The notes under the pieces: generated by a model
Seen by the model: only the letters and a program-made list of their open reading frames with translations
What the model was told of the DNA's origin: nothing
Databases searched by the model: none
NCBI GenBank assembly: GCA_965153455.1
Contig: OZ234493.1
Span: forward strand, 62,001-126,000
Direction: 5' to 3'
Source: Sphagnum compactum
Taxonomy: Eukaryota
Length of the DNA stretch: 64,000 nt
Translations under genes and position numbers: made by a program
Part shown: positions 1 through 64,000 of the stretch, in pieces
Numbering within the stretch: position 1 is the stretch's first letter
Layout of the letters: each line of letters opens with the position of its first letter

Positions 1-1906
1 TAGTAATAATAAATAATAAAAATAATGAAAAATTATCCCAAGAAATAATTTTTTAATATCTAATTAATTAATGAAATAAAAAATTAAATCACTTCTGTTT
101 TTAATATATCTGATTATTTGGCAATTACTTCTAAAATAATAAATTTCTACTCATCCAATTACTAAAATATAAATATTAATTTTACCTCTAAAAATAAACC
201 TTTTAAATTGTTAGTAGGTGTATTAGTTAAGATCTTCACCATTAATTAGTAGTAATAGTAAATGGCGACTTTCTTGGTGGATTATTAAATCTTTTTTGGA
301 ATCTTGCTTAGTTTTAGCAACCTACAAAAACACATTGTTTATATCTAGCGACTTCTGAGTTTTTTTGGTTAGATATGGCAAATTGCTTTTAAAAATCTCA
401 AAAATCCATTTGTTCGATTCATTAGCGTTTTTAGTGTGGCTAGGTTGCGAAAATTCACCAAAAAAAAGCACTACTAATGATCAACTAATTAAATAAAAGA
501 TAATTAGTTATTATCTAATGATCTAACAAAATAAATTATTAATTAATTTATAATTCTTGAATATTAACTGTAAACTATTAAATTTCTAGTTTATTAACTT
601 AATTAGTAGATATTAAATCAGTTTTCATAGAGCATTAATATTGATTGATTAATATTAATTAGCTATGAACCATAATTCTTGAATAATAAATATTAACTCT
701 CACATATTTTGATAAATATTAATGAAATAATAAATAAATTACTTCTTTATATTGTATAAATATTAACTAATTAAAAAGTTAAGTATTAGACAAAACTAAT
801 ATATTATGAATTTTATTTATTTATTAAGTAAAAATTAAATCATTTTTAATTCATCATTAAATAGTAAGTAGACAATTTAATTTGTGAAGAATTTATTTTC
901 TGTTATCCATTGCCTGGCTAAATATTTACTAATTAGTAATCATTAAATATTAACCATAACTCTTGATTAACTACCTAAATCAGATTATTGAGATATTTTA
1001 GAACTAATCATGTAATTCGAAATTAATTAATAAGGAATAATCAGATAATTATTATCTGAATAATTTTTTAGAATAACTATTTATTTCATAGTATTCAAAT
1101 ATTTAATAATTTTCATTAAATTATTCAGAAATCATGGATTAATAAATATTAAATATAAATTATGTATTTATAAACCTCTTGACTTGTTGATAGAAAGAAA
1201 GTAATTCTTTATTAACGAACTATTATTTCATATCTCTTAATTAATCAATTAATTAATATGAATAATTCATGACTAATGATTAATTATTGTATCAATTTAT
1301 AATTTAATATCTAATTAATCAAAAATTATTTCTTAAATAACTAATAAATAATAACTGATTATTTTGTTTTAAATGGTTGTTATTTTAAGTGTAATTGAAT
1401 GATGAAATAAAATTATTTAACTCATACTTTATATTAACCAATAAATTGTTTGAAAATAATAATTGTCAAATAATTAATGCTCATTTAATACAAATCTTAT
1501 ATCATATGAATGTAACCTTGCTATAATATTTAGTCATACCTTATAAAGATGGTTTATTTTAAATGAACCCCATACAAAATCAAAATGATTTTTTTCAATC
1601 CAATATGCCGATAATATGGTCAAATATATGTTTAATATATTTTGAACACATATTAAATATCTTCATATACCATGAATACAAGTCAAATATGCTTAATATA
1701 CCTTGAATAAAATTTATATAATGTACTTTTAATGTACTCCACAAAACTTTAATGTACATTAATAAATGTGTAAACACATAATAATAAGTAATTAAATTGC
1801 AACTAATTTTGTAACTAAATGAACATGGGATCCTATTCTTGGATGAAAAAATCATTAAGTTAATCAATATGGAAGAATGTGTAATTTAATAGTCTCACCA
1901 TAGGCG

Positions 1907-2109
1907 CAACTTGAAGGATTGTGCGGAGGAGTATGTGAAGACTTGTTTAACTTGTCAACAAAACCAGACCCTCAACAAGAAGCAAGCGGGTTTGTTACAA
2001 CCTTTGCCGATTCCCGAAGGGCCGTGCGAAAGTGTGTCAATGGACTTTATGATAAGTTTGCCCCCTTCAAAGGGGTTTGATGCCATCATGGTTGTGGTGG
2101 ATCGATTTT
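1907..2109 (+). pseudogene. Fragment of chromovirus pol (integrase zinc-finger end and start of core)
   Basis: Translates KDCAEEYVKTCLTCQQ...SVSMDFMISLPPSKGFDAIMVVVDRF. Near-identical to 18880-19081 of element A. Confidence 0.9.
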
Positions 2110-2686
2110 CATTTGTGGCGTTCACAAGGTCACGGAGTTTGCACCGAGAGATGTAGTCGGAATTCCTTGGAACAAATTTCGACTCGAGGCATTATTTGAA
2201 GAATTCCCAAGTATACCCATGGTTCTTCCCCTCCTCTTGTCTCACCGTCCCCCACCATGTGGTGGCATAGCCTTTCAAGTAGGACTAGGCAAGCTCCACG
2301 GCGGAATGCCGTCCAACCTTGGCGGCATGTATATAATCGTCCATCTCCGCAAGCCAAGCATCCACAACCTTCTGGTCTCAGGCACCATCGTAATTCCCGG
2401 GCTTGGCCGGTTGAAACCTTTCACCTTTGGAGGTCCCCGTTTTGAGGGCTGCCACCAACTCACCAAAGTCCGGCCTATTCATCTTGAGGAGGACTTCAAG
2501 TTGCTCCAGGGTGAATAGGACCGAGCTCCGTTGTTCCTCCTCACTTTCGGGTTCAACCTCGGGCTCATCTTGGTCCTCCCGGAAATTTGGTTCCTCCCCA
2601 ATTGATTCCGGCGGGGCTACTAGGTCTTCGACGGGCTCCTCGGACCTAAGCTCTGGAGCTAGCTTCCGATTCTTCTTGGGTGCCAT
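2110..2686 (-). pseudogene. gag: Truncated gag of copy C
   Basis: ORF 2378-2686 matches the gag N-terminus of element A. Stop at 2378, homology continues to ~2110. Confidence 0.88.
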
Positions 2687-2722
2687 CCCAAACTCCCAAG
2701 AAGTACTTGAGCTTCACCTTGA

Positions 2723-2734
2723 GCTCTGATACCA
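2723..2734 (-). promoter_or_regulatory. Primer-binding site (tRNA-iMet) of copy C
   Basis: TGGTATCAGAGC on the minus strand, 2 nt after the LTR end. Confidence 0.92.
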
Positions 2735-2736
2735 CA

Positions 2737-3555
2737 TGACGCGCTCCTAAGTCCCTTGTTGAACCCACTTGAGGGTTCAACTATGTAGAGTTGCGGAAAG
2801 TTGGGACTTGGGGCCGTTCCCGACTTCCAGCACTAGAAAGGGTAAAGGGGCATGCTAGAAGTCCCGTGATTAGACTGGGAAGAGGACAAGTGTTTCACCT
2901 ACTCAAATCTGCATAAAAAACCAACCCAAGTTGGTTAGAATCCATTCTGCACCCTTTTGGTGTTGGGACAAGCCACGGGCTAACTTGGACTCACTTGACT
3001 CACCACGGCCTGGACTCGGGGGAAGCCACCACCTTCCCCCTTATAGTATTCTTTGCGTCTCACCGCGGAGGCTACATCTGAATGGCTCTTTTTCCCGGGA
3101 CTCCCAAGTTGGAGTCCCGAAACTGTCCTGGGTTGAAGTCCCAAAACTTTGGGAGCTCGTAGCTCCCAGCTCCAAACTCTAATTGGAGTGATCCTTGAAC
3201 CAAAGTTGTAGCCCTTGTCGAGAGCTTTCCAACGCCATGTCGCACTTTTTCTGCAAACGTCCGCAAGAAGTCGATTCCCGACTTTTAGTGGTCGGGAGTC
3301 AAACTGCCAATTTGACTCCCGGCCCTTCTTTTGCCCGTAACTTGGGCTGCAGATGTCCAAATGACCAATGCGAGGGCATTTTAGACATCTACACTTCAAG
3401 ACCTTTCCATTGATATAAAAAACACCTCGAGGCGAGGTGTTTTGACCCCTATAATCTCTCCTGAGTTTTTGAGAGTCCCAGAGGACTCTAAGTCTCGCAC
3501 TTTTTGGAGTGTGAGGTGCACTCTCACCCTTTTGCCTCAAAGTGGGGTTGTCACA
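2737..3555 (-). repeat. 5' LTR of copy C (~819 bp)
   Basis: TG...CA ends. Homologous to LTRs at 14475-14974, 20881-21691 and 21692-22450. Confidence 0.9.
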
Positions 3556-5002
3556 CCCACGCATTCTCTTTCCCAAGCTTTTCCTAACATAAAGTGGATG
3601 GTTGGACCACTCACACAAGGCAATTCATGTGCCTTGACTCGTACAATCCCACTTTTAGATGGGATTCTAACTAACCTATTGTGCCCTTCTATGAACACAT
3701 TGTTTTGGGTGATGAACTCCATTCCCAAAACGCAATCCATTCCACCCAAGGTGGAAACTAACAAATCCACCTTTCCTTTCCAATTTCCCAATTGGAGAGG
3801 CACTCCCTTTGCTTGTAAAGTGGTTGGATGGGGAACCCCATCCGCGAAGTGCACCTCAATGGGTGCCTTGAGCTCCTCCAAGTGGAGCTCCATCCTTTCG
3901 GTGCTCTCCCGAGTTATGAAGTTATGAGAAGCCCCTGTGTCCAAAAGACATAAAATATCCCGCTTAGCGATCTTCCCTTTCAAGAAGATAAGTCAATTGC
4001 ATTCCGGTTGGGCTAGAGTGGCATTGAGAGCAAGTACCTTAGAGCTCCCACTCCCCGGTTTGGACTTGGGACAATCTTTGGAGTAATGCCCCACCTAGTT
4101 GCAATTGAAACATGCACCCTTGGGTTTTGCTCCAAATTCTCCCTTGGTTTGGTTCCCTTTGAAAGGAGCCCCCTTCTTCACAAAGCTCCCTTTGGGTTTG
4201 AACCCCAAGCCTTGGAATTGTTTGGGCTTTTCCTTGGTTGGGCTACCTTGCCCCAATTCCATTCCCCCTCATGCCTTGGTTTCTTGTGAAGGAACTTGTT
4301 GTCCTTATTGAACCCGGATTTGTCGCTCCGCCCTACATCCGAGAAGTTCTCCACTTTCGTGATGGCCTCGGATAGTGAGGTGGGCCAACTCTCCTCAAGC
4401 TTTCGCTTGGCCCAAGTTGGAAGCCCCATCACAAATTGGCACACACGATCCAACTCGTGCATGTGCCGGATCTCAAGCATGAGCTCGGAATAGGCCCTCA
4501 CATATTGCCTCAAATTTTCATTTGTGGCATTCACAAGGTCACGGAGTTTGCACCGAGAGATGTAGTCGGAATTCCTTGGAACAAATTCCGACTCGAGGCA
4601 TTCCTTGAAGAACTCCCAAATATACCCATGGTTCTTCCCCTCCTCTTGTCTCACCGTCCGCCACCATGTGGCGGAATAGCCTTTCAAGTAGGACTGGGCA
4701 AGCTCCACGGCGGAATGCCGTCCAACCTTGGCGGCATGTATATAATCGTCCATCTCCGCAAGCCAAGCATCCACAACCTTCTGGTCTCGGGCACCATCGC
4801 AATTCCCGGGCTTGGCCAGTTGAAACCTTTCACCTTTGGAGGTCCCCGTTTTGAGGGCCGCCACCAACTCACCAAAGTCTGGCCTATTCATCTTGAGGAA
4901 GACTTCAAGTTGCTTTGGGGTGAATAGGACCGAGCTCCGTTGTTCCTCCTCACTTTCGGGTTCAACCTCAGGCTCATCTTGGTCCTCCCGGAAATTTGGT
5001 TC
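3556..5002 (-). pseudogene. gag C-terminal part and aspartic protease of copy B (frameshifted)
   Basis: ORFs 4178-4891 (retrotransposon gag) and 3537-3983 (DTGA protease) are colinear with element A. Confidence 0.9.
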
Positions 5003-5246
5003 TGTCGTGACGTGTAGTGTCGTGACATATAGTGTCGTAAGGGTGTGAATCTGTAAGAAACTCTACTAAACAAACAGCCTAAAACCAATTAAAGGTAGAA
5101 ACTAATCAACTAAAAAGAGATGCATGCACACACATATATATACAATGCACAAGTGAGGCTGAGATGAAATTCTCATGTATCCCCCCCAGACCTGAGCCGG
5201 GAAAAGCGTGGCATGGTCTGAGTAGGAATCAAGGTGCTGTAGGAGA

Positions 5247-5381
5247 GCATGATGAACAGTACCAATTGCCGGCGGGAACTTGAGTGAGTTCCGGCTTGAG
5301 GCAGAAGAGATGGTATCCACCATTACAATTATCGCAAAGCAACATCTGATCAGCATCGTCTATCCTCTAACATACCTAACA
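5247..5381 (-). other. PHD finger (C4HC3) at the integrase C-terminus
   Basis: Manual in-frame translation C*VC*RIDDADQMLLCDNCNGGYHLFCLKPELTQVPAGNWYCSSC. The two TAG stops hide it from the ORF track. Confidence 0.9.
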
Positions 5382-8300
5382 TGGATAATCAAGTGGAGGA
5401 ATCCAAGTCGACGTGATGATGGTAGGATCTAAGTTTGGCAAGTGGCAAAGCGCACAATTTTTGGAATGATCTCGAATTGTGCGTCCATCAGCTCCTTGCA
5501 ACTCCAACACACCTGAAGGCCTGATCGCCTTAATCCTCAAGATAATGCGACCGGAAGAAGTGTCTAAAGTATCATTGGGTTGTCGCTGAAGATACACAAA
5601 ATCACAAACATCAAATTGTCTCACCTTAGGTTTCTAACTGCCACCTCGTGTGTGTGCATATCGTAAAGTGTCTCGATGTTGTGCAATGGACAGGTTCTCC
5701 ATGGCCATGGGCATAACCCTCTTGAATAGAGCGGCCCTTTCTGCAATGACCTTAGCCCAAATGTTTGGGGAGTCCAAGTCCACAACTTAGTCCATTTGAG
5801 CAGCAATGGAAGAGGGTGGAATGGGATGTCTCCCAAAAAGTAAAAAGTAAGGGGAGAAATGAAATAAAGAGGCGTGTTTGGACATCCTGTAACCCATGGC
5901 GATGTAAGGGAGGGCCAGGTCCTAATCCTCTTTGTTCTTAGTGAGGCAAATCTTCCGAAGTCCCTTCTTGCATGTTTGAACCATCCTTTCTGCAAGGCCA
6001 TCAGCTTGGGGATGATCTCTTGAAGTCCGACGATGGTCAATGAGAGCATGGTCAAGTAGGTCTTGGAATTCTCCCCTGAATTCTGATCCTTGATCAGTAA
6101 GGCACTCAACACAAGCCCCAAACCTACTTAGAACCTGTTGTAAGAAAGCCTGGCTAGTGCTGTGTGATGACTTGTCCGATAGCGCAACAAGTTCGACCCA
6201 CTTTGAAAAATGTTCAATCATAATCATGATGTAGACATTACCCCTGGAGGTTTGTGGTAATTCTCCAGCTAAATCACATGACCAACGATAGAACATGCCC
6301 TGAATAGGTAGTGGAGAAAGAGTGAGCTGTCGAGAGGAGAAGGAAGTTCTCACTCTATCACATTGTTCACACCTAGCAATGATGTCTCGGACTTGAGCAT
6401 ACATACCTCTCCAATGGTAATGAGGAGCGAGAAGGCTATAAGTACGCTTAACTCCAAAGTGTCCAAGCTCCGAGTGTACCTTCTGAATAAGACCAAGCCG
6501 TTCATGTGGTGGTGGAACCACTCTGTCGCCTTGTGGTAAGCATCGGACGAGGTGATTGTCCCTCCATGAGTAGCGTTTGGATCGCTGTTGTATGCGATCC
6601 CGCTGACTTGATGTAACTTGGGGAGGGTATTCCCCATGTTGAAGAAACCCCAGAGTGTCCAAGTCCTCCCATATATCCAGAATGGGATGCTCAACCAGGT
6701 TACATTGTAGTAATGCAAGATAACTAGATGCCTCAGATACATGTATTGCTGGGATTTGGTCAAAATCTTGCCTGGCTTCTGAAAAATCTTCAGAGGTAGT
6801 GAGGGGTCTTCGTGACATGGTATCCGCATTTTGATGTGTAATACCAAGTCGGTGAATAACCTTGAACTCATACTCTTGAAGTATAAGCGCCCAACGAGCT
6901 AACTTACCAGTAAGCTTATCGTTGGTCATCAACCATTTGATAAGCTGGTGGTCCGTATACAGAGTGAAATTGGTGCCATAAATAAAGGGCCTGAAATGTA
7001 TGACGGCCCATACAACAGCAAGGCACTCCCCCTCGTATGAAGAGTAGTTGCTCTCAGCCTTGTTGTTGCTTCGAGATGCATAGGCGATAACATATTCCTT
7101 GCCTTCCTCATCAAGTTCGCCCAGAATAGCTCCAATACCAAGAGCACTCCAGTCAGTGTGTAGAATGAAGACCTTGCTGAAATCAGGTCTTCTTAGAATG
7201 GGGAACTCTGAAAGCTTTTCCTTGAGTGTGTTGAAAGCTTCCTGAGCCTCTTCACTCCATGTCCAAGCAACATCCTTCTTTAACAATGCATAGAGAGGAT
7301 GAGCAATAGTATTGAAGTCTTGGACATAAATCCTGTAGTAATTACATAGTCCGATGAAGCTCCTCAAAGTGTGAACATCAGTAGGATCGGGCATCTCCAA
7401 AATGGCTACTACTTTGGCCCAATGAGCCATAATACCATTTGGCAAAATTCTGTGTCCAAGGTAGACTACTGAGGTGACAGCAAACTCACACTTTTTAGGA
7501 TGGATCTTCATATTGACTTCGTGGAGCCTCTTGAATAACTCCTCAAGATGAGCCAAGTGCTGCAGGAGTCCCTTGCTATGCACTAGGACATCATCTATGT
7601 AGCATTTCAGGAAATCTGCCCCTTCGAGAACCTGGTCCATGACTCGCTAAAAGAAGACAGGTGCATTCTTCAATCCAAAAGGCATCACAAGCCATTCCCA
7701 CAACTTGTTGCTTCCATGGAATGTCGTTTTCTTGCGATCCTTTGCAACGAGCACAATCTGGTTGAAGCCTTGCCTCAGATCCACAATTGTGAAGATGTTT
7801 GAGTCTCCAATGCTATCAAACAGTTCTTCAGGGATGGGCATGGGGTACCTGTCCTGAGGTGTAACCAGGTTCAAAGGCCTATAATCCCCGCACATCCTTT
7901 TCTCAATCCATAATCCAGCTGCATCCTTCTTTGCTGGCATTACTATAGCGGCTGCGAAATCAGAACTTGATGGCTGAATGAGACCGGCCTCATGGAGCTC
8001 TTTGCATCTTTCATCTACCAATTCCCATACATGTTTGCTCAACCTATGCCTCCTTCGATAGACCGGTGTCTCATCTGTAAGGTCTATAGAGAACTGCATG
8101 GTCTTACACCTACCTAAGTCTTTCATTGAGAATGCGAACACATTCTCATACTTAATTAGCAAGTCTGTGACCTGGTCTCTCTCCTTCTTGGTGAGCTGGT
8201 TCCCCATAACAAAAGGGTAGTTGGAAACACATGGAATGGAGTTGGAAAGTGTGTTTGAAGAACCTGGTGTATTGGGTTCTCCATTATCCAACTGCGTAGA

Positions 8301-8534
8301 TTCGTAGAAGGTTGTAATTGTTTCTCCAGAAGCTGATGTACCTCGAGGTGTATTGGACATAACTTGAGTCAAATTACATGGTACCTCCTCCCCCCCAACA
8401 CTGAGAGTGAAATGTAGAGTGTTGAAGATAGGCAAGTATACTTGGTCAGGGTGCCATGTGGTTGCATCGCCAGAACTGCAAGCTGATTGAGTCAATGTTG
8501 GTGTTGTGTACATTTGAAAGAGTATACAGGTTAC

Positions 8535-9473
8535 CAACAACCATGTAAGGGAGTTCAGGTCCATGCTTCTCCCCAGTAAAGCGTTATGCTCCAATCTAGT
8601 CACCTTGGTGTGACTAGTAGTGCTAGTTTGGAACCCCATAGCCCTTTCTCTTTCTTCTGGGCTTGGTTCATCCCAAGTGGCTGAAGCATGACGATACACC
8701 AAGCCTGGTCCATCTCCCTGAAAGGCGTGTGCTCCAGGGAAGGAGACAAAGGTGGGCCAAGCACCTCTTGGTTTTCCTATTGTATTCGCAAGAAACCAAG
8801 GAGGTTTCTCTTGCCTTGTAACTAGTCGGCAAGAGCTCTGATCATCCAATATGTGAGAAACCTGTAGGTTGTGGTCTCTGATGGTGTATCTCAGAGCCAA
8901 CTGCAGAATTGAAAGTGGTGCAAGGTTGGTCCACCAGTTGCGCAGCCGGTGCGCATAGGAACCGCATTGTGCCGCATCGAGTAGGAATGGCTCGCCAAGG
9001 TAATGTTTAACAAGTGTGTAGTGCTCCTGGACTTTCTCCCTCTGGTCAAGCTGAGAAGGGATGTTCTCAATTACATAACCAAGCGTAGGGGAAATGGATT
9101 GAGCCCAGGTGATCAATCGTACCATGTCCGTGAAGAGACCGGATCTTGTGTCACTCAAGCCTTCTCCAAATCCAGCTGCTGAAAATCCTTGACACTCCCA
9201 ACCTGAAATGATGAGGTCCACGGGGCCAAGTAATTCCATATGCTTATTCTGAATTAATTGTATGTCAGGGGGCAAGAAAGTGAAACTGGCCTTCCATGCG
9301 GTGGTTGTAAACTGTTGTGGAAATCTGGTTGTGAGCTCCATCATTCTCGATGCTGCCACTTGCCTTGCAATAGGATCAATGTCTACGTAGAAATACTTTC
9401 GAACCACCATCCCTGACTATAGTAGGGCTTCGAGACCTATACCAATACCACCAAAGAGCTCTAGTAATGTAAT
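8535..9473 (-). other. DNMT3-like DNA (cytosine-5) methyltransferase domain within Pol
   Basis: Ordered C5-MTase motifs: I LELFGGIG, II VDID, IV DLIISGWECQGFS (Cys at 9192-9194), VI YVIENI, VIII AHRLRNWWTNL, IX ERERAMGF, X LLGRSM. Confidence 0.92.
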
Positions 9474-10591
9474 CCCTTCCTTAGGTGGTGTCCAGGTGAT
9501 TAGCTGACGGAGTAATGGCTTAATCGGTTCGCCATGGCTCTCCATGCTTTCAAAACTAGACAAAGCTTTGACCAAGGGCTTATGGGCTACTTTGAACCTT
9601 TGTAAAACCTCTGGTCCATGTTGAATGTCAGTAGGAACCACCCTCAAGCTTTCAGTAGCTTGAGCGTAAGCTATCTCCTCTTCATCTCCCTCTATCCATT
9701 CGTGGCTAGGTTGTTGGATGTAGGAAATGGTGTGTGCTTCCTTGAGCATACAATGGTGAGCCATAGGACTATGGTTCCCATGTAAATCAAGGGGTATGTA
9801 TCCCAGGTGGTGGCCATCAGTCTCCCAATCCACTCGGTAGTACGCATGTTCGAACCAGTTGTCAATTGTGAAACCTGGTGGAAACAGGGCCTCTTGCCCA
9901 ATGAGCACATCATAACTAGTGGCATTGGTGACTAAACATCTGACCTGTAGGCAAAGCTCCTGATTTGTACCTTCATTGAAATTAAGTGCAATCAAATCCG
10001 AGCTCTCCCCAAGTACCTCCTCTACGCTCCCACTAGCGATGCGAATGTGCCACATAGATTTTCGTAGTTTGGAGTCAAGCATGCCCATCTTCTTGGCGAA
10101 TTGAACTCCAAGAATCACTGGTTGGGCACCTGTATCAAGAAGAACCACTCTGGGTGTATGTCCTCCCACCTGGATTGCTGACTTAGTATTGTCGACAATG
10201 GCAACTCCGGTGGCGATGGAAGTTCTCTCACTAGGCACCACCTTCGGAAATGAGTGAGAGACTTTGTGGAGAGAATGGCTATCCACAACGCCTTTGCTGA
10301 GTAACAAATCCACAAGTGAGGTGTTCTTAACTCCCTTTTGATATGTGAATGTAGAATCAGAGGTAGGAAAGCTCACTAGTTTAGCCATGCCAGAACTAGT
10401 GACCAGATTACAAACGCCATCTGCAACACGTGAACCAATCGAATGTCTCTCCAAGGTGTTGGATGGGACCTCTGTAGCATGTGGATTAGGGAGTGGTAGA
10501 GGACCTGATGTAGTGTTCAAGGTATCCTCTAAGATTGCAATTATGTCCCTGGTGCTTAGCTTCAAATCTTGAAAACTAAACAATGGTGTAC

Positions 10592-12634
10592 TCACAAGCT
10601 TTTGCGCCACTCATGCATTTGAAGTTGGCATTCCATAAGCTGATCAGTGAAAAATTGTGTGTTTTCCTCATGTACTTGTACTCTTGGGACATGAGAATTT
10701 GATGCCCTAACAGCTTGTGGTGTAGTAGTCTCCTCCCCCCTCGCCAACAAGGTGCGTTCTTCTTCCATGTTGAGATGACGAAAAGATTGTGGCATGACTG
10801 CTCGAGCTCCTCTAGCCCTAGTAATAGGACTTGAGCCAGATGTGAATCCATCAGTCTGAATTACCTGCCTAGTGGCAGAAACTCTAGGTGCCACACTAGC
10901 TTCTTGTGCCGCGACATAAGAAGGGCAAAAAGAAGTAGCCAATTCTGGTGTGAGACTAGAATTGTGTGGAGTGGAAAGAACATACTCCCCAACCATTGCA
11001 TCGTGTGGAAGGCCATAGAACGACCTAGGAGGTCCCTCGCGTGATCCCGAACCTTGTATAGGTTGGGCATGACTAGCTGGTTGGGAGGACTTGCCCTTTA
11101 GATTAGCAAGTTGGGCCCTCAATGATTCAAGTTCATTTTGTAAAGTCTGAACTTGAATTGCATGGGCTTGAAACACCTCCCTCTTATCAGCATTTTGCTC
11201 CTTCTTCTTAGCATTCTTGTTGGAATTATTCTTGGTGGGCAAAGCCTGAGTGGAAGGCTGAGGTGCCTTGGCTTTTGGTTGACGGACAGCGGAAGATGCT
11301 GGCAGATTTTGTCATTGTAATCGGAGTTGCTTCCGCTCTGGGAACTTGGCAAAACAGACAGATTCATGATGTCCCTCTTTCCCACAATAATCACAAAAGA
11401 GATCCTCGGAAGGAATGTTACACTCACTAGCTTTGTGGGCAGGATTGCCACAGTAGTTGCAAGAAGGTAGGATGGGTGTAGCCGAGTGCACCGCTTTAGT
11501 CCTTGAAGAAGAATGCGATGATCTAGTTGGCGTAGCTGGTGTAGGTTGAGGCCTTGAACGTGATGGAGGCCTCATAGTACTGGCCTCATAGTGTGCATGA
11601 GCCAGTTCTAGCTTTTCGGAAATGTTGTACACATCCAACAAAGTGTACGAGTCTCCAAATTCTACAAAGACACGTTGCAAAACCTGCGCGTGCAGTGTTG
11701 GAGTACCTTCCAACGAACGAAGATACCGATGGGCAGCTTCTAGGTCTGTGATGCTCTGGGTATCCTCTTTGAGTTTGAGAAGCCTCCTGTAAAGCATCTT
11801 GAGGGTTTCATCCTTTTGCCGCGAAAAAGTGGCGAGCTGTAGAATTTTTTCAGAACTTTTGACTGGAAATTCCAGCTCAAGAATTCGAAAGAATTCCCCC
11901 ACTGGATCAACAAAAGCTGGCACATCAATGGTGGGAGGAATGTTTGCAGTAGCAGCAATGAGTTGTTCAAGAGAAAGGTTTACTGAGGTAGGTACCGGGT
12001 CTGGATTATTCAGCACAGTCCCGTGATGTGCAATTGCAGCTTGCAATGCAGCTTGAGAGGCGGTGGCGATGGCTATGGCGTAAGCTGGATTAGGAGCTTG
12101 GGTGACACCCAAAATCCTTGCAGAATGTTGCTCGTAGACATCCAATGCCTCATAATGCACATAACGAGCCAATTGCTTAAATGCAAACGCTTTGGTGTAA
12201 TTAGCACCATACTTCAGCTCCAATTCACAGACCACTGTTGGGAAAGTTTCCTTGAACTCGCTCAACGAAATAGTACCTGGCCTTCCGCTGAACTTCTCTA
12301 TTCTCCCAGAGGAATTGCTGACCTCCATGGTGTATATAGGTGTTGAAGTCACAGCTCGCAACGGAGTATACGGTGATGGTGCGAAAGTAGGTGCAGCAAC
12401 AGGTGTACCCCACTGATTGACCCCTCCAAATGGACTTTGATGTACTGTTGATGTAATGTAACCTGAACCTAAATTCCTAATAGGAGTAGTACTAGATGAC
12501 GATGGTGCTATGGGTGCTTGATGGTACCAACGTGAAGATTGTGAACTCAAAGATATTGGTTCAAAAGGTTGTGGGTTACTTCGTAACTGCCTTGGTTCTC
12601 GATGAGTAGTAGTACTTTCATCATCCGAGGTCAT
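10592..12634 (-). pseudogene. gag: Gag of the methyltransferase element with two CCHC zinc knuckles (one internal stop)
   Basis: Probable start MTSDDES at 12634. Gag-like RQKDETLKMLYRRL. Knuckles CNYCGNPAHKASEC and CDYCGKEGHHESVC. The TGA at 11312 is in frame with ORF 10592-11242. Confidence 0.85.
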
Positions 12635-12779
12635 GGTGTTGTCCCATGCCCCAAAATTTTGTACTAATATAATCCCCCAATTACAAAATCCTAACACAAT
12701 GTATGGTTTGAATCTCCCTAATTGCAGGACGATAGTATGGTAAAATGCAGCAAGATAAACTTCAAGACACAAGACCACA

Positions 12780-13740
12780 CGATGCACGACCACAGTGCGC
12801 AGAACACAGGAAACAGGACTGCAGTACAATACTACGCAGGACGGTACTACACAGGATGGCAATACGCAGTACGGCGGTACGCAGCACGACATGACGCAAG
12901 ACGATAAATACGGTGATGTCAGCAGTGACGTAGGCAGGACGCAGGACGGTAGTACGGTGATGTCAGCAGTGATGTAGGCAGGACGCAGGATGGCAGCACG
13001 ATGACGTCAACAGTGACGTAGGACAATCCGACGAACGTCGGACGGAAGTTGAACGCACGGAACTTGAACGAATCGTCTGACGAGAGTCCGACGAAAGTCG
13101 GACGGACGTAAAACGGACCAAGGTCGCAGCGATGGCGCTGCAGCTCGCAACATTGCGACGCTACGTTGTTGCTGCTACAGTGCTCCTACGGCAGCGATGA
13201 CGTTGTTGCAACGTTGCTGTTGCGGCGTTGCTGTTGCGGCGCTGCTGCGCTGTTGCTGCGACGCTAGTGCTCCAGCGATGGCGCTGTGGCACTGTTGTTA
13301 CGGCCTTGAAGCTACGGCGCTACTGCTGCAGCTGCGACGCTACGGCACTATTGCTGCGGCGCTGCGGCGCTATTGTTGCGGCGCTATTACTACAGCGATG
13401 GCGTTGTGGCGCTGTTGCTGCAGCGATGGCGTTGCGGCGCTGTTGCTGCAGCGATGGCGCTGCGCCGCTGTTGCTGCAGCGATGGCGCTGCGCCGCTGTT
13501 GCTGCAGCGATGGCGTTGCGCCGCTGTTACTGCGGTGCTTCTGTTGCTGCGGTGCTGCTGTTGCAGCGATGGCGCTGCGGCGCTGTTGCTGCGGTGCTGC
13601 TGTTGCTGCGGTGCTGCTGTTGCAGCGATGGCGCTGCGGCACTGTTGCTGCGGCACTGCTGCTACAGCGATGGCGAGGGGCGCTAGAGCTCGCGGCAACG
13701 GCAGCGCTGGGATGCTGCGCAGTGATGGCAGGCGGCGGAC
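12780..13740. repeat. GC-rich tandem repeats in the 5' leader of the methyltransferase element
   Basis: ~27-bp unit GCAGCGATGGCGCTGCG(G/C)CGCTGTTGCT repeated over ~13130-13740. GCAGGACG / GTGATGTCAGCAGTGA repeats and TCCGACGAA.GTCGGA palindromes over 12780-13110. Confidence 0.85.
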
Positions 13741-14168
13741 GTCGCGATTTTTGTTTTTACTCGACAACTTCAAGGGAAAAAAAGAGAGAAAGGAGAGAAA
13801 TTCAAAACTTGTTTCCCGGCTCTATTGGTTGGCATAAGACAAGCTCGTTCTTGTAACAATGCCTACTCCCTTCGACAGTAGCAACCCCAACACCCTCCGG
13901 CAGCAGTACCACCAACAGTAGCAACAATAGCAACAACAACAATAACTCCAGAACTTACAAGCAAAAGAAATCTGTGGTTTACACATGAAGCACAGAAAGT
14001 GGAGTTTTTCTAGAATTGAAATGAATTGCAAAGAACTAATGAAGGTGTATGTAGACGGTGGCCGTGTAGTAACCACTGTGAGCATCTAGAAAATCCAAGT
14101 AAACTATGGAGGCAACTCTCATACAAAGGAATTCTAGAAAAACTAAAGGATAAGGGAAGGGCTTGGCC

Positions 14169-14176
14169 CTTTTATA
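14169..14176 (-). promoter_or_regulatory. Putative TATA box of the methyltransferase element
   Basis: TATAAAAG on the minus strand ~150 bp inside the 5' terminus, followed by a pyrimidine-rich stretch. Confidence 0.5.
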
Positions 14177-14460
14177 CAGCCACCAAAAGCTGAAACCCTG
14201 AACACCTAATAGCGTACAGTCACTTAAGAACGTACGTTAACCCTACAACCGTACATTAACCCTAAAAGGTATGACGGCATGCCCGTAACCGGGCATCATG
14301 TATGCGGCCATGCATACGGGCATGACAGTTCCTCCCCAATTGAATCTGGCGGGGCTACTAGGTCTTTGACGGGCTCCTCGGAACTAGGCTCTGGAGCTAG
14401 CTTCCGATTCTTCTTGGGTGCCATCCCAAACTCCCAAGAAGTACTTGAGCTTCACCTTGA

Positions 14461-14472
14461 GCTCTGATACCA
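14461..14472 (-). promoter_or_regulatory. PBS (tRNA-iMet) of copy B
   Basis: TGGTATCAGAGC on the minus strand next to the LTR end at 14475. Confidence 0.92.
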
Positions 14473-14474
14473 CG

Positions 14475-14974
14475 TGACACGCTCCTAAGTCCCTTGTTGA
14501 ACCCACTTGAGGGTTCAATTATATAGAGTTGCGGAAAATTGGGACTTGGGGCCGTTCCCGACTTCCAACACTAGAAAGGGTTAGAGGGGCGTGCTAGAAG
14601 TCCCAGGATTAGACTAGGAAGAGGACAAGCGTTTCACCTACTCAAATCTGCATCAGAACCAACCCTAAGTTGGTTAGAATCCATTCTGCACCTTTTTGGT
14701 GCTAGGACAAGCCACGGGCTAACTCGGACTCACTTGACTCACCACGGCCCGGACTCGGGGGAAGCCACCACCTTCCCCCATATAGTATTCTCTACAGCTC
14801 GCCCCCAAGGCTACATCCAAATGGCACATTTTGTTGGGACTCCCGAAATGGAGTCCCGAAACTGTCCCGGCTAGACTCCATGAACTTTGAACGGCCATAA
14901 CTCCCGACTGCAGAGTCCGATCACGACGAGGTCTGAACCAAAGTTGTAGCCCTCGTCGAGATCTTTCCAACGCC
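14475..14974 (-). repeat. 5' LTR of copy B, 5'-truncated
   Basis: Homologous to the other LTRs. Breaks off at TCCAACGCC where it abuts the oppositely oriented LTR of element A. Confidence 0.88.
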
Positions 14975-14975
14975 T

Positions 14976-15578
14976 TGGGCAAAAGAAGGGCTGGGAGTCA
15001 AACTGGCAGTTTGACTCCCGACCACTAAAAGTCGGGAATCGAACCTTTCCCGACGTCGCCTCAAAGACTGCAACATGGTGTTAGAAAGATCTCGACGAGG
15101 GCTACAACTTTGGTTTAGACCTCGTTGCGATCGGACTTTGCAGTCGGGAGTTATGGCTGTTCAAAGTTCCGAGAGTCCCGCCGGGACAGTTTCGGGACTC
15201 CATTTCGGGAGTCCCAACAAAATGTGCCATTTGGATGTAGCCTCAGCGGCGAGCTGCAGAGAATACTATATGGGGGAAGGTGGTGGCTTCCCCCGAGTCC
15301 GGGCCGTGGTGAGTCTTGTGTGTCCAAGTGCCCGTGGCTTGTCCCAACACCAAAGGGTGTCTCGAATGCTAAACTAACCTCTTGTGGTTGGTTTTTGGAT
15401 GCAGATTCACACAAGCTAAGCTAGTCCCTCTTCGTAGTCTAATCCCTGGGCTCCCAACTCGACCCTCTACCCCTCTTTAGAGTTGGAAGCCGGGAGCGTG
15501 CCTTTCGGTCCTAACTTTCCGCTACTTCACATTGGTGAACCCTCAAGTGGGTTCACCCCGGGACCAAGGAGCGCGTCA
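14976..15578 (+). repeat. 5' LTR of element A (first ~215 bp missing)
   Basis: Direct repeat of ~21097-21691, ends GCGCGTCA. Confidence 0.92.
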
Positions 15579-15580
15579 CG

Positions 15581-15592
15581 TGGTATCAGAGC
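15581..15592 (+). promoter_or_regulatory. PBS (tRNA-iMet) of element A
   Basis: TGGTATCAGAGC 2 nt after the LTR. Confidence 0.93.
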
Positions 15593-15620
15593 TCAAGGTG
15601 AAGCTCAACTACTTTTTGGG

Positions 15621-18600
15621 ATGGCACCCAAGAAGAACCGGAAGCTATCTCCAGAGCCTAGGTCCGAGGAGCCTGTCGAAGATCTAGTAGCCCCGCCGGA
15701 ATCAATTGGGGAGGAACCAAATTTCCGGGAGGACCAAGATGAGCCCGAGGTTGAACCCGAAAGTGAGGAGGAACAACGGAGCTCGGTCCTATTCACCCCG
15801 GAGCAACTTGAAGTCCTCCTCAAGATGAATAGGCCGGACTTTGGTGAGTTGGTGGCGGCCCTCAAAACGGAGACCTCTAAAGGTGAAAGGTTTCAACCGA
15901 CCAAGCCCGGAAATTTCAATGGTGCCCGAGACCGGAAGGTTGTGGATGCTTGGCTTGCGGAGATGGACGATTATATCCATGCCGCCAAGGTTGGACGGAA
16001 TTTCGCCGTGGAGCTTGCCCAATCCTACTTGAAAGGCTATGCCGCCACATGGTGGCGGACGGTGAGACAAGAGGAGGGGACGAACCATGGCTATACGTGG
16101 GAGTTTTTCAAGGATCGCATTGAGGCGGAGTTCATTCCGAGAAATTCTGACTACATCTCAAGGTGTAAACTCCGTGACCTTGTGAATGCCACAAATGAAA
16201 ATTTGAGGCAATATGTGAGGGCCTATTCTGAGCTCATGCTTGAGATTCGACACATGCACGAGTTGGATCATGTGTGCCAATTCCTGATGGGGCTTCCAAC
16301 TTGGGCCAAGCGGAAGCTTGAGGAGAGTTGGCCCGCCTCATTATCCGAAGCCATCACGAAAGTGGAGAACTTCTCGGATGTGAGGCGGAGTGACAAATCC
16401 GCGTTCAAGAAGGACAACAAGTTCCTTCACAAAAAGCCAAGGCATGAGGGGGAATGGAACCGGGGGCAAGGTAGCCCAACCAAGGAAAAGCCCAAACAAT
16501 TCCAAGGCTCGGTGTTCAAGCCAAAAGGTAGTTTTGTGAAAAAAGGGGCCCCTTTCAAAGGGAGCCAAACCAAGGGAAATTTTGGAAACAAACCCAAGGG
16601 TGCATGTTTCAATTGCAACCAGGTGGGGCATTACTCCAAAGATTGTCCCAAGTCCAAGACAAGGGTTGGGAGCTCTAAGGTACTTGCTCTCAATGCCACT
16701 TTAGCCCAACCGGAATGCAATCGACTTATATTCTTGAAGGGGAAGATTGCTAAGCGGGAAATTTTGTCTTTTGGACACAGGGGCCTCTCACAACTTCATA
16801 ACTGGGGAGAGCGCCGAGAGAATGGAGCTCCACTTGGAAGAGCTCACGGCACCCATTGAGGTGCACTTCGCGGATGGGGTTCCCCATCCAACTACGTTAC
16901 AAGCAAAGGGAGCACCTCTCCAATTGGGAAATTGGAGAGGAAAGGTGGACTTGTTGGTTTCCACCTTGGGTGGAATGGATTGCGTTCTAGGAATGGAGTT
17001 CATCACCCAAAACAATGTGCTCATAGAAGGGCACAATAGGTTGGTTAGAATCCCATCTAAAAGTGGGATTGTGCGAGTCAAGGCACATGAGTTGCCTTGT
17101 GTGGGTGGTCCAACCATCCACTTTATGTTAGGAAAAGCTTGGGAAAGAGAATGCGTGGGAGGTTTTGGCATGATGTGTGTCATGCGGGTGTTGGATGAAT
17201 ATGAGCCCAAGGAAGCCACCAAGTTGGTGACTTCCGCCAAGTGCATAAAGCAAGTCTTACAACAGTTCCCGGATGTGATGCCCGAAGAATTGCCCGAAGA
17301 CTTGCCCCCGAGAAGACGAGTTGATCATGCGATTGAAGTGATACTGGGAGTGGAACCACCCGCCAAGGCCCCATATAGAATGAGCCACGAGGAGTTAAAA
17401 GAACTCAAGGTTTAACTTGAGGAACTCCTCGCAAAAGGTTACATCAAACCAAGCAAGTCGCCATATGGGGCACCCGTCCTTTTTGTTCACAAGAAGGATG
17501 GGACTTTGAGGATGTGTGTTGATTATAGAGCACTCGACAAGGCAACGGTGAAAAATCGGTATCCTTTACCTCGCATTAATGATCTCTTTGATCATCTCTC
17601 GGGAACCAAGGTTTTTAGTAAAATTGATCTACGTTCAGGGTATTACCAAATAAGGATCGCGGAAGGGGATGAAGAAAAGACCGCTTGTCGCACAAGGTAT
17701 GGTTCATATGAATTCTTGGTGATGCCCTTTAGGCTCACCAATGCGCCCGCCACATTTTGCACTCTCATGAATGACATTTTCCGCGAATGGCTTGATGATT
17801 TTGTGGTCGTCTACATAGACGACATTTTGATTTATAGTAGCTCCATGGAGGAGCATGCGGAGCACCTTCGCAAGGTGTTCCAAAGGCTAAGGGAAATAAG
17901 TTGTATGCCAAGCTCGAGAAGTGCGAATTTGGGGTGACGAAAGTGGATTTCCTTGGGCATAGGATAACTCAAGAAGGTTTGATGATGGATGATCACAAGG
18001 TCAAGGCAATTTTGGATTACGAGCCGCCTAAGTCGATTCTCGCCTTGAGATCCTTTTTAGGATTGGCCTCCTATTATCGCAAGTTCATAAAGAACTTTGC
18101 GAGAATAGCAGCCCCTTTGACAAACCTCTTGAAGAAGTCCGCCGTCACCTACGATTGGGATGAAGCATGTAACGAAGCCTTTGAGACATTGAAAGGCATT
18201 TTGGTGAAGGCGCCGGTGTTAAAGTTGCCCGACTTTGACAAGGACTTTGAAATCCATTCCGACGCCTCCGACTTTGCAATTGGAGGTGTCATAGTGCAAG
18301 ATGGAAGACCGGTGGCCTTTGAAAGCAAGAAGTTGAGTGAAACGGAAAGAAGATGGCCAACACACGAGAAGAAAATGTGGGCGGTCATACATTGTCTCAA
18401 GACTTGGGGCCACTACATAGGCTCCAAAGATGTAGTGATGTGGACCGACAATGTGACCTTGAAATACTTCTCCACTCAACCCAAGTTGTCATCGAAGCAA
18501 GTAAGGTGGCAAGACACATTGGCTTTGTTCAATGTGGACATCCGGCACAAGCCGGGAAAGGAGAACATAGTCCCCGATGCCTTGAGCCGGAAACACCAAC

Positions 18601-20868: not shown

Positions 20869-20880
20869 AGTGGGGGAGAG
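20869..20880 (+). promoter_or_regulatory. Polypurine tract of element A
   Basis: AGTGGGGGAGAG immediately before the TGTCGCAACC start of the 3' LTR. Confidence 0.85.
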
Positions 20881-21691
20881 TGTCGCAACCCCATTTTGGC
20901 CAAGTGTGGGGGTGAAGCCCAACACTTGGAAAAGTTAGAGGTTTGGAGCCCTCCGGGACTCCTGAATGTTCACAGCTCGACAGCAAGGCCCAAAACACCT
21001 CGCATTGAAGTGTTCTTGGTGTCATTGGAAAGTCTTGAAACTTAGATGTCGAAAATGGTCTTGCATTGGCCATTCGGACATCTGCAGCCCAAGTTATGGG
21101 CAAAAGAAGGGCCAAGAGTCAAACTGGCAGTTTGACTCCTGACCACTAAAAGTCAGTAATCGAACCTTTCCCAACGTCGCCTTAGAGATTGTGACATGGT
21201 GTTAGAAAGATCTCGACGAGGGCTACAATTTGGTTCAAACCTTGTTACGATCGGACTCTGCAGTCGGGAGTTATGGCTGTTCAAAGTTCCGAGAGTCCCG
21301 CCGGGACAATTTCGAGACTCCATTTCGGGAGTCCCAACAAAATGTGCCATTTGGATGTAGCCTCGGCGGCGAGCTGCAGAGAATACTATATGGGGGAAGG
21401 TGGTGGCTTCCCCCGAGTCCGGGCCGTGGTGAATCTTGTGTGTCCAAGTGCCCGTGGCTTGTCCCAACACCAAAGGGTGTCCCGAATGCTAAACTAACCT
21501 CTTGTGGTTGGTTTTTGGATGCAGATTCACACAAGCTAAGCTAGTCCCTCTTCGTAGTCTAATCCCTGGGCTCCCAACTCGACCCTCTACCCCTCTTTAG
21601 AGTTGGAAGCCGGAAGCGTGCCTTTCGGTCCTAACTTTCCGAAACTTCACATTGGTGAACCCTCAAGTGGGTTCACCCAAGGAGCGCGTCA
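20881..21691 (+). repeat. 3' LTR of element A (811 bp)
   Basis: TG...CA ends, follows the PPT. Confidence 0.93.
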
Positions 21692-22450
21692 CTTGGAGTT
21701 CTCCGGGACTCCCAAAAACTCAGAAGCAATTACAGGGGGTCAAAACACCTCGCCTTGAGGTGTTTTTTATATCAATAGAAAGTTCTTGAAGTGTAGATGT
21801 CTAAAATGGCCTTGCATTAGCCATTTGGACATTTGCAGCCCAAGTTATGGGCAAAAGAAGAGCCGAGAGTCAAAACTGGCAATTTGACTCCCAATCACTA
21901 AAAGTCAAGAATCGACCTCTTCTCAATGTCTGCAGAAAGAGTGCGACATGGCGTTGAAAAGCTCTCGAAGAGAGCTACAACTTTGGTTCAAAGATCACTC
22001 CAATCAGAGGTTGGAGCTGGGAGATACGAGCTCCCAAAGTTTCGGAACTCCAACCCGGGACAATTTCGGGACTCCAACTTGGGAGTCCCGGGAAAAAGAG
22101 CCATTCGGATGTAGCCTCCGCGGTGAGACGCAGAGAATAATATATGAGGGAGGTGGTGGCTTCCCCCGAGTCCGGGCCGTGGTGAGTCAAATGAGTCCAA
22201 CTTAGCCCGTGGCTTGTCCAAACACCAAAAAGGTGCAGAATGAGTTCTAACCAACTTGGGGTTGGTTTTGATGCAGATTTGAGTAGGTGAAACGCTTGTC
22301 CTCTTCCTAGTCTAATCCCGGGACTTCTAGCACGCCTCTCTACCCCTTTCTAGTGTTGGAAGTCGGGAGCGGCCCCCAAGTCCCAACTTTCCGCGACTCT
22401 ACATAGTTGAACCCTCAAGTGGGTTCAACGAGGGACTTAGGAGCGCGTCA
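21692..22450 (+). repeat. LTR D (solo or 3' LTR, C-type subfamily) into which element A inserted
   Basis: Matches LTR C from ~60 bp in through GCGCGTCA at 22450. No PBS follows. Confidence 0.87.
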
Positions 22451-22825
22451 TCATGAGAGCCACTTATTCAAGGAGCGAGGATTTTTGGATTCCTCTCAGC
22501 TCTTAAAAATAGAGCGGAATGGCAGTTTGCCAATGGATGACACTGCTAAGACTCATGTATCGCTGAGTGTTACCATATCATGGATTTATGTACAATGCCA
22601 AGAAGCCATCTTGATGATCATGGCTGCTAGTTCTGTGAGTTCTTTTTACCTTGCTGACTGGACCATTGTGATACTAATTTATTTCCAAGAGTTTTGGTTC
22701 AAATAGCCCATTCTATTACATTCGTAAACCAATTGGTGGCATCTCCTCTCAGTAAGTCTCCAATACTTTCTGGTGCTATGATCTGGACTTTGGTTACTGT
22801 GTAATATTTTGAATGTGGAATTTTG

Positions 22826-43148: not shown

Positions 43149-44057
43149 TGTCATGACCCTAACCTCGGGCTCCCAACCAAAGTTGGGACAAGAGAATGAA
43201 AAAATGTCGAGAATAAAACCAATACATGGCCCAGTTCAAACCTAGAACAAAGGTGAGTTCAAAATGTTTGGTTATGAATGGTAGGAACCCACAAAACTCT
43301 CAAGTGCATTCCTACTAAATGTGGAAAAATGTGCTATAGAAATGGGGCTCCTGTGAAGTCTAGATTTTTTGGGCAAGGTTTTGGGGATCAAATCTTGTCC
43401 AATTTCATCACTTCATTGCAATGCAAGCTACAATTTGATGGGTTCACATTGCCAAGACAAATTAAGGTTAATTGTGATGATAGTAGGAAATTTTATTCCC
43501 ACTCATTTAATGTGTGACAAGTGAACATGATATGGGGACCAAATGATGTTCAATTGAAGATCTTGATAAAATGTTGAAGGGCTATAATTTAAAACTTTAG
43601 AATGTTCCAAATAATGTATTTTATTGAAATTATGCATTCCCAAGTTTCAAGAGTTTGAACTTGGGAATTTCCAAACTTTCATTTTTTGTGAGCTTTGAGA
43701 AGTGCCACTTTGTTCTAAGTTGCATGGGAATTACAAAACATACTCTATGGAAGGTATTGTTTCCCCAAATGGTCCAAGCTATGATGAATCCAATGTGAGT
43801 CCACAATTATTTGATGTTCCAATTCTAATTCCAACTACAAGAAACACGTTCTTGCATCTAGTTTGTGTAATTGACGTGATCAAAATTGGGTTAATGAGAA
43901 TTGCCTTGTCCTATTTTTATTTTGGAGCTCCCACATGACTTGTCATTTTGATTTGACAAGCTAAGGAGTGTGCTCGAGGCTCAAGCATGTTATTTGTAGC
44001 ACACGATATCACGAAGTTGCCTTCAATGCCATTTGGTAAGCTTATGCAGGTGTGTCA
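43149..44057 (+). repeat. Ancient degraded LTR-like sequence, followed by another in the opposite orientation to ~44550
   Basis: Starts TGTCATGACCCTAACC and ends GTGTGTCA. Faint colinearity with the young LTRs (gggctataattt; catactctatggaaggtattgtttcccc). No TSD recognisable. Confidence 0.45.
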
Positions 44058-57838: not shown

Positions 57839-58109
57839 TAGTGTACACGGGCAATTTATTGCTGCAGTTGGGCATGCTTCTAAGAGCAGACTTCTATATT
57901 CCATTATGCCAGCCAGAAAATACCAAAATACTTTATGACATTTCACCCAATAGGTATCTCATGTATTAAAGGATCTCATGTATCCTTAGTTTGTCAGACA
58001 AGATTTATTGATAATTTGTTGTTATTCAAGATAAGTTAGCCAACTTTATTGGTCCACTTATAGCTTTTAGCTGATACCTTGGCAGGTTTGGCAAAAAAAT
58101 ATTAATTAA

Positions 58110-63993: not shown

Positions 63994-64000
63994 CTAAAAC

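Follow-up and report, generated by a model that had tools for sequence, protein, structure and literature searches.

A short-form Ty3/gypsy-like element with a DNMT3-type methyltransferase in Sphagnum compactum, and the split direct repeats of its family

The window analysed here is a stretch of 64,000 nucleotides from Sphagnum compactum (GCA_965153455.1, contig OZ234493.1, positions 62,001 to 126,000 of the forward strand). At window positions 5003-14327, on the minus strand, it holds a precise insertion of 9,325 bp, as established by direct reading and by comparison with a paralogue of the interrupted host element. The inserted copy is a shortened form, A-internal-B, of a Ty3/gypsy-like family with a DDE integrase and a DNMT3-type methyltransferase. 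In its full-length form the family has the layout A1-internal-B1-NN-A2-B2 inside a 4-bp target-site duplication (TSD), where A (about 300 bp across the family) and B (about 176 bp) are direct repeats and NN is a spacer of 2 nt. The borders and repeats in the window are:

4999-5002, strand not applicable: TSD GTTC on the 3' side of the element (direct reading, restored host site)
14328-14331, strand not applicable: TSD GTTC on the 5' side of the element (direct reading, restored host site)
2590-2593, strand not applicable: empty site in a paralogue of the host element that is uninterrupted and has GTTC once (alignment to both flanks)
14015-14327, minus strand: repeat A, which forms the 5' terminus over 313 bp and starts TGTCATG; a second copy, A2, stands near the 3' end in complete copies of the family (repeat comparison)
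5003-5180, minus strand: repeat B, which forms the 3' terminus over 178 bp and ends CACGACA; in complete copies it is followed by NN-A2-B2, absent from the window copy (repeat comparison)

On the plus strand, TTTGGTTC is followed by TGTCGTG at 5003, and CATGACA is followed by GTTCCTCC after 14327; the element thus ends in TG..CA, with an imperfect inverted match of 7 nt only. The host gag frame is continuous again once the insert and one GTTC are taken out. Within the window, the paralogue matches the two flanks at 2105-2593 versus 4514-5002 (96%) and 2590-3239 versus 14328-14977 (88%), both matches overlap by exactly 4 bases, GTTC, and the restored site agrees with paralogue positions 2560-2625 at 61/63 aligned bases. 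The borders are therefore exact, being fixed by the restored host frame and by paralogue matches that overlap in GTTC. An original prediction, made by a model from the sequence alone, had set both ends by the interrupted host gag with GTTC duplicated and had read the imperfect 7-bp inverted termini TGTCGTG/CATGACA, and both statements are borne out. Of its smaller measurements, the ~225 bp after the pol stop were counted as 226 bp (stop at 5229-5231), and the G7 tract placed at ~5180-5186 is real and lies one base further on, at 5181-5187.

The same prediction had stated that the two ends share no direct repeat and that a tRNA-iMet primer binding site (PBS) is missing, and both absences stand for this copy. 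Comparison of the element with itself by BLAST (word 11) yielded no direct repeat between the ends and only an internal 14-nt tandem array, and Smith-Waterman alignment of the first 1500 against the last 1000 nt reached a best score of 22, at shuffle level (30 shuffles, mean 22.8, maximum 30). No exact match to the iMet PBS, iMet being the tRNA screened, lies within the element, where a single match with 2 mismatches falls in coding sequence; the host element has exact matches at 2723-2734, 14461-14472 and 15581-15592, one of them 130 bp from the insertion.

The coding order on the minus strand is Gag, protease (PR), DNMT3-like methyltransferase, reverse transcriptase (RT), RNase H (RH), integrase (IN) and PHD finger, with the following features:

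10592-12328, minus strand: gag, Met at 12328, two CCHC knuckles near 11340-11440, one in-frame stop
5229-10610, minus strand: pol frame, 1794 codons, 7 internal stops (open reading frame (ORF) reading and domain search)
about 9885-10175, minus strand: PR, in the pol frame
about 8511-9473, minus strand: DNMT, in the pol frame between PR and RT
about 7446-7898, minus strand: RT, in the pol frame
about 6870-7259, minus strand: RNase H, in the pol frame
about 6009-6515, minus strand: IN with H2C2 zinc finger and rve domain, in the pol frame
5232-5366, minus strand: PHD finger, C-terminal to the integrase (Pfam, PF00628, 4.8e-12)

Pfam domains occur in the order PF13975, PF00078, PF17917/PF17919, PF17921 and PF00665, with PF00145 (1.9e-08) inserted between PR and RT; the tyrosine recombinase PF00589 had no match in any ORF of at least 100 aa in the Pfam scan. 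A family profile of Gag-PR-DNMT was compared with solved structures and ranked DNMT3A/3B/3C at the top (1.6e-20), with lower scores for DRM-type plant methyltransferases (2.4e-10 and 2.3e-06) and M.HhaI (1.5e-08). Motifs I, IV, VI, VIII and X of the methyltransferase follow in canonical order, as judged by eye. The DNMT3-type C5 methyltransferase domain is complete in the window (8511-9473); its motif IV reads ECQ in the window copy and several relatives and PCQ in other relatives.

A search with the methyltransferase part returned 72 DNMT-bearing polyproteins, mostly unnamed, the named ones including Closterium and Monoraphidium, and metagenome contigs, scanned with 17 aligned Gag-PR-DNMT proteins as query, yielded 80 loci whose best segment is 51-95% identical at the amino-acid level to P0002, an intact relative with 80% identity. 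BLAST of the element against these loci reached both ends of the query (position 1 or 3 to 9325) in 23/80, so that the termini in the window are the termini of the family and no accident of one copy. In complete loci, a body like that of the window copy is often followed, after exactly two bases, by a further unit of ~470-490 bp, the start of which resembles the 5' end of the element and the finish its 3' end. Self-comparison of 12 complete long copies resolved this unit in all 12 cases: A1 (280-335 bp) recurs as A2 and B1 (about 165-180 bp) recurs as B2, A2 adjoins B2, and nothing B-like follows A1. Among 30 distinct 3' ends (29 loci and the window), 17 have the form B-NN-A-B and 13, including the window, a single B; loci with shared flanks were merged for this count (L017 and the plus-strand copy of L056 with L043, L012 with L011, L052 with L051). 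No B or A-B unit was found upstream of A1 at any catalogued 5' end of the family, nor any copy of the form AB-internal-AB.

These units lie inside the TSD. The 4-bp duplication is perfect in 15/21 copies that possess both ends, namely in 9/12 long copies (2/12 agree at 3 of 4 bases and one, L055, shows no match) and in 6/9 short copies (including the window copy and L062; the other three agree at 3 of 4 bases), the L011/L012 copy with its truncated B being omitted from these counts. Among the 12 two-ended long copies (for the other five long 3' ends the locus contains no 5' end), similarity between A1 and A2 averages 0.894 inside a copy, against 0.843 for A repeats taken from different copies, and a repeat's own partner is its nearest relative in 17/24 cases. 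The spacer between B1 and A2 measures exactly 2 nt in 17/17 long copies and reads GC in 8, AC in 4, GT in 3, AT in one and TA in one, a spectrum that fits an ancestral palindrome GACA-GC-TGTC eroded by transitions. The boundaries of the repeats differ in their precision: the one between A1 and the putative PBS has no indels in 12/12 copies and the one between G-run and B1 deviates in at most 2/12, and the A2/B2 junction carries differences of 1-2 nt (6 indels) at or within about 6 nt in 7/17. In DNA runs that contain the window sequence, the A/B joint (5180 to 14015) occurs in X1 and X4 and the B-AT-A joint (14327 to 5003) in X1. Several of these runs bear the label moss metagenome, and summed contig depth indicates a high copy number of the family in the DNA runs examined.

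Within and beside the repeats lie candidate replication signals, which in the window are:

14169-14176, minus strand: TATAAAAG box inside A; TATAAAA is invariant in 41/41 aligned 5' ends
14130-14144, minus strand: first bases of the putative RNA, AGTTTTTCTAGAATT, a candidate self-primer ~25 nt after the TATA box and a perfect complement of the PBS
14003-14017, minus strand: putative self-priming PBS, AATTCTAGAAAAACT, within which the A/internal boundary 14014/14015 falls
5181-5187, minus strand: G7 run, candidate polypurine tract (PPT, plus-strand primer), directly upstream of B

In the window, AGTTTTTCTAGAATT and AATTCTAGAAAAACT form a perfect 15-nt inverted repeat exactly at the boundary of A and the internal region. 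An alignment of 5' ends was made from the window and 40 loci, leaving out the near-duplicates L009, L012, L049, L063 and L065 and loci without a 5' end; over these 41 copies, 94% of the cells of the primer/PBS helix can pair, versus 42-60% when the structure is slid by 1-3 columns. The G-rich run, of 6-9 G, adjoins B1 in 12/12 long copies, as the G7 run adjoins B in the window. Just past the putative PBS lies a further short hairpin (window 13965-13995, minus strand; alignment A2, columns 274-297) in which 87% of cells pair, with compensatory changes in some copies (TGTTGCTT/AAGCAACA versus TGTCACTT/AAGTGACA) and a covariation too weak for proof.

On the basis of these signals, transcription would start ~25 nt past the TATA box in A1 (near window 14144, sense nucleotide 184), the first 12-15 nt of the RNA would fold back on the PBS adjoining A1 in the manner of Tf1-type self-priming, and plus-strand synthesis would begin at the G-run adjoining B1. 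Because reverse transcription would make a repeat bounded by the two primer sites, the G-run for the plus strand and the self-PBS for the minus strand, that repeat would be B-NN-A; the promoter would lie in its A part, and its order would be permuted with respect to the termini of the inserted element. The integrase would then cut the palindrome GACA-GC-TGTC inside B-NN-A, so that the integration ends TGTC...GACA arise there, and the natural ends of the cDNA (the end of A and the start of B) would be joined afresh at each insertion and become the A2/B2 junction. A molecule with two repeats, opened at one palindrome, would give exactly A1-internal-B1-NN-A2-B2, and only this long form would have, at its 3' side, the second copy of transcribed A sequence that strand transfer requires. 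We consider this permuted-repeat reading about evenly balanced between right and wrong. The specific route, through a circle or through integration followed by joining of the ends, is less likely than the permuted repeat itself, since a symmetric cut predicts a mirror form, A-B-NN-A-internal-B. A simple two-repeat circle cut at either palindrome was dropped as a route, the mirror form that it predicts being absent; one may speculate that this form is missing because the left repeat is completed first in reverse transcription.

The arrangement recurs in a distant relative, L081, a 9,285-bp contig filed under a cyanobacterial metagenome-assembled genome (MAG), with 28% amino-acid identity and a terminal overlap of 127 nt, from which it was taken to be assembled as a circle. 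Its pol stop is followed by a G7 run, ~100 nt, the sequence CACGACA-GC-TGTCACG, a TATA-like site and an inverted repeat of 19 nt, the arms of which are 89% complementary and lie 157 nt apart. These features follow one another as they do in the moss family, whereas the primer and PBS sequences are different; that the same order is kept despite different sequences argues that the arrangement is functional and old, and is the best evidence for it.

Several observations weigh against the permuted-repeat reading or limit it. Covariation in the primer/PBS helix is modest, with 16 double-change cells versus 10.3 in shuffles, a value reached by 20/500 shuffles; the test is weak because double changes are few and the structure was taken from one of the aligned sequences. 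The within-copy signal of B1 and B2 is slight (own partner nearest in 8/24), B being shorter and more conserved. The mirror form A-B-NN-A-internal-B, which a symmetric cut would produce, was never seen among the loci. The run data are contigs, which are blind to the starts and ends of RNA and cDNA, and the loci come from metagenome assemblies rather than from a finished genome. All complete copies examined (21/21) are degenerate and lend no support to current activity. In its widest form, the proposal would describe a clade of Ty3-like DDE-integrase elements, from green algae to mosses, in which a B-NN-A repeat is permuted, the integrase cuts a built-in CA-GC-TG palindrome and the host joins the cDNA ends as the A2/B2 junction; for this wider claim our doubt slightly exceeds our belief.

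For the window copy itself, loss of NN-A2-B2 after insertion by a single unequal recombination between B1 and B2 is the probable history. Such an event strips every repeated part while keeping the TSD and the body, which accounts for the lack of any visible repeat in this copy. One locus pair documents the conversion: L006 (long) and L048 (short) have a common insertion site and the TSD CCAA, with flanks that are 96% and elements that are 89% identical, so that one insertion event yielded both forms, for which recombination between B1 and B2 accounts. It had been argued in the original prediction that loss of both long terminal repeats (LTRs) would need two independent deletions; this argument fails, because one B1 by B2 recombination makes the single-B form. 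Its wider proposal, an LTR-less element with a non-canonical replication route, survives in so far as this copy has no LTR pair and the family no canonical paired LTRs, and falls where complete copies carry A1-internal-B1-NN-A2-B2. Alignment of the termini and TSDs of the copies, which it had advised, revealed no ordinary paired LTRs in the family; the window copy is nonetheless most likely a recombined derivative, the outcome that such LTRs had been expected to reveal.

The alternative that deserves most weight, although we think it unlikely, is that A-internal-B is a primary product of integration and that the window copy never had NN-A2-B2; the integrase would have cut either a linear cDNA, at the palindromes of both its B-NN-A repeats, or a circle with one repeat, at its only palindrome. 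Short forms are frequent (13/30 distinct 3' ends), perfect TSDs flank 6/9 of them, and the permuted-repeat model foresees such a product, so that direct integration of the short form is possible for the window copy too, which counts against a derived origin. Against it, L006/L048 shows that at least one short form stems from the same insertion event as a long form, and under the model a short form could not serve as template for further copies, since the transcribed part of A is missing from its 3' side. The data offer no distinction between primary and derived short forms.

Recombination between B1 and B2 is also to be set against explanations in which the family is of another kind. A repeat-less Gag/RT/IN lineage that replicates without terminal redundancy, as the missing terminal direct repeat of the window copy would suggest, is very improbable given the A2 and B2 repeats inside the TSDs of 17 distinct relatives and the presence of both the A/B and the B-NN-A junctions in DNA runs that contain the window sequence. 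Slightly less probable still is an ordinary LTR retrotransposon that lost both LTRs by two deletions or whose LTRs diverged beyond recognition: the coding capacity is that of Ty3/gypsy, but the TSD directly adjoins the present ends, the same ends recur in the 23 loci reaching both query ends, no copy has a 5' A-B unit or a B upstream of A1, and the end-to-end local alignment stays at shuffle level. Least credible of all, and rejected, is a cut-and-paste DNA transposon with gypsy-type integrase, the Ginger likeness drawn in the original prediction. Ginger1 and Ginger2 combine a gypsy-like integrase, TGT termini and a 4-bp TSD, all shared with the window element, with long terminal inverted repeats and no Gag or RT; the window element encodes Gag, PR, RT and RNase H, its inverted ends measure just 7 nt, and the repeats within one copy of the family co-vary as replication-made repeats do.

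The window copy is dead, with 8 internal stops (7 in pol, one in gag) and one frameshift, which separates gag from pol; in P0002 the two are read through. The PHD finger occupies the place of the chromovirus chromodomain and is also present in many of the 72 DNMT-bearing relatives. Compared with other copies (4800-14530), the window copy differs predominantly by C>T and G>A, at 193-554 places per run versus ~14-51 per transversion, an excess with the pattern of methylated-cytosine deamination, and the element itself codes for a methyltransferase. One further feature belongs to the 5' untranslated region:

13120-13680, minus strand: tandem array of 14-nt units, variable among copies (repeat search)

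Contig depth drops sharply over 12925-13899 in all four runs, which marks this stretch of the 5' untranslated region as hypervariable between copies.

Contigs from the RNA libraries X15 and X16 cover 30/30 and 28/30 bins, and one X16 contig spans the A/B junction; as these are contigs and DNA carry-over is possible, neither observation allows a conclusion on expression or on transcript starts or ends. A scan of viral contigs gave 80 loci with weak matches (23-54% identity in the best segment) to the methyltransferase part only, among which, the loci themselves being uninspected, no retroelement was identified. From genome contigs came L081, the one useful locus, together with five short matches, at 35-49% identity over the best segment, to records of Streptomyces, Clostridia and Deferribacteraceae. 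Eukaryotic-type Gag-PR-DNMT-RT-IN sequences stand under bacterial MAG names, as L081 (a Synechococcales MAG contig) and P0043 (a 'Minisyncoccia bacterium' protein) show, and these labels are probably binning errors.

The insertion sits in a different Ty3-type element, whose PBS is a canonical iMet site and parts of which lie at 2105-5002, 14328-17159 and 20880-22451. This host is present in several partial copies, direct and inverted (for example 3556-5002 versus 17159-15714, inverted, 92%), which suggests a rearranged nest. Other repeated blocks in the window, with 80-88% identity and unrelated to the element, are 29177-33931 versus 58091-61592 and 43576-45090 versus 62445-64000.

Elements of this layout are apt to be missed or misfiled in plant and algal genomes, because standard tools for LTR elements rely on paired LTRs and those for DIRS elements assume a tyrosine recombinase and the lack of a TSD. 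The layout provides a concrete, testable model for an integrase element that regenerates its ends from an internal junction, and it ties together self-priming, integrase cleavage of circle junctions and split direct repeats, which are otherwise handled apart. If the model is true, the family would parallel the DIRS strategy with an integrase in place of the recombinase, and would represent a third way, beside LTRs and tyrosine-recombinase circles, to restore the ends lost in transcription. The captured DNMT3 domain is a further point of interest, as the genome hosts a transposon that is predicted to be able to methylate DNA and whose own copies have a marked excess of C>T and G>A changes.

Retroviral integrases, such as those of foamy virus and HIV-1, cleave the palindromic LTR-LTR junction of circles. 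What the family has in common with this junction is a palindrome of the form CA-spacer-TG, from which integrase could release two processed ends at an internal position; the retroviral palindrome, however, arises only after ligation of LTR ends, whereas that of the family is built into the repeat, is reverse-transcribed and has a 2-bp spacer. The shortening of copies resembles the formation of solo LTRs, as one recombination between direct repeats within the element excises the intervening DNA and leaves the TSD intact, with the difference that here B1 and B2 recombine, the coding body stays and only NN, A2 and one B are lost. With Ty3/gypsy elements the family shares a CCHC Gag, the Pol order PR-RT-RH-IN, TG..CA termini and a short TSD; paired LTRs are absent, and the window copy has no exact PBS for iMet, the tRNA screened, in place of which stands the self-primer candidate.

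Self-priming is known from Tf1/sushi and, among plants, from the Tcn1 clade found in mosses and club-mosses (Neumann et al. 2019, PMC6317226). As in these elements, the screened iMet PBS is absent and the predicted RNA begins with a stretch that can pair with a site adjoining the repeat's end; complementarity and position of Tf1/sushi type are present for the putative transcript start, with an analogue in L081. Tf1/sushi and Tcn1, in contrast, are chromoviruses with ordinary LTRs, and the window family has split repeats and a PHD finger for the chromodomain. Split repeats in the order A1-internal-B1-A2-B2 have been described for PAT-like and Ngaro elements of the DIRS order, in the sections consulted (PMC8969392, PMC7192593). 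In both groups the internal B-A junction places the two termini side by side and can restore the ends missing from the transcript. DIRS elements, however, use a tyrosine recombinase and make no TSD, while the window family has an rve DDE integrase with H2C2 zinc finger, TG..CA termini and a 4-bp TSD; of the marks of DIRS it displays the split repeats, at the level of the family, and neither the recombinase nor the lack of a TSD.

The closest counterpart in print is KnitGypsy-Dnmt3 of Klebsormidium nitens, to which the legend of Fig. 4c in its description ascribes the repeat structure of DIRS and the domain composition of Gypsy (de Mendoza 2018, PMC5890265), and which a 2026 preprint, in the part available, names the streptophyte Gypsy-DNMT3 kind. 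According to the portions seen of these sources, it has a Gypsy-type polyprotein with an unrearranged DNMT3-type domain in Pol (PMC5890265) and the layout A-coding-B-A-B, as do the 17 distinct long copies of the moss family, of which the window copy keeps only A and B. The host is an alga in one case and a moss in the other, and the likeness is one of description. Given the account of KnitGypsy-Dnmt3 in PMC5890265, the split-repeat Gypsy-DNMT3 kind is already published, though barely described, and the family of the window is a further member of it. Papers listed on split direct repeats in retrotransposons all dealt with tyrosine-recombinase elements or were general works. For Gypsy-DNMT3 elements, no TSD, PBS or PPT placement and no integration model were found in the literature searched, which covered parts of the papers and left their supplements outside. 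What the present analysis appears to add, as read from the sequences, are a candidate G-run PPT at B1, a putative self-priming PBS at A1 and integrated ends that would meet at an internal palindrome, and the value of these features lies in rendering the model of replication testable.

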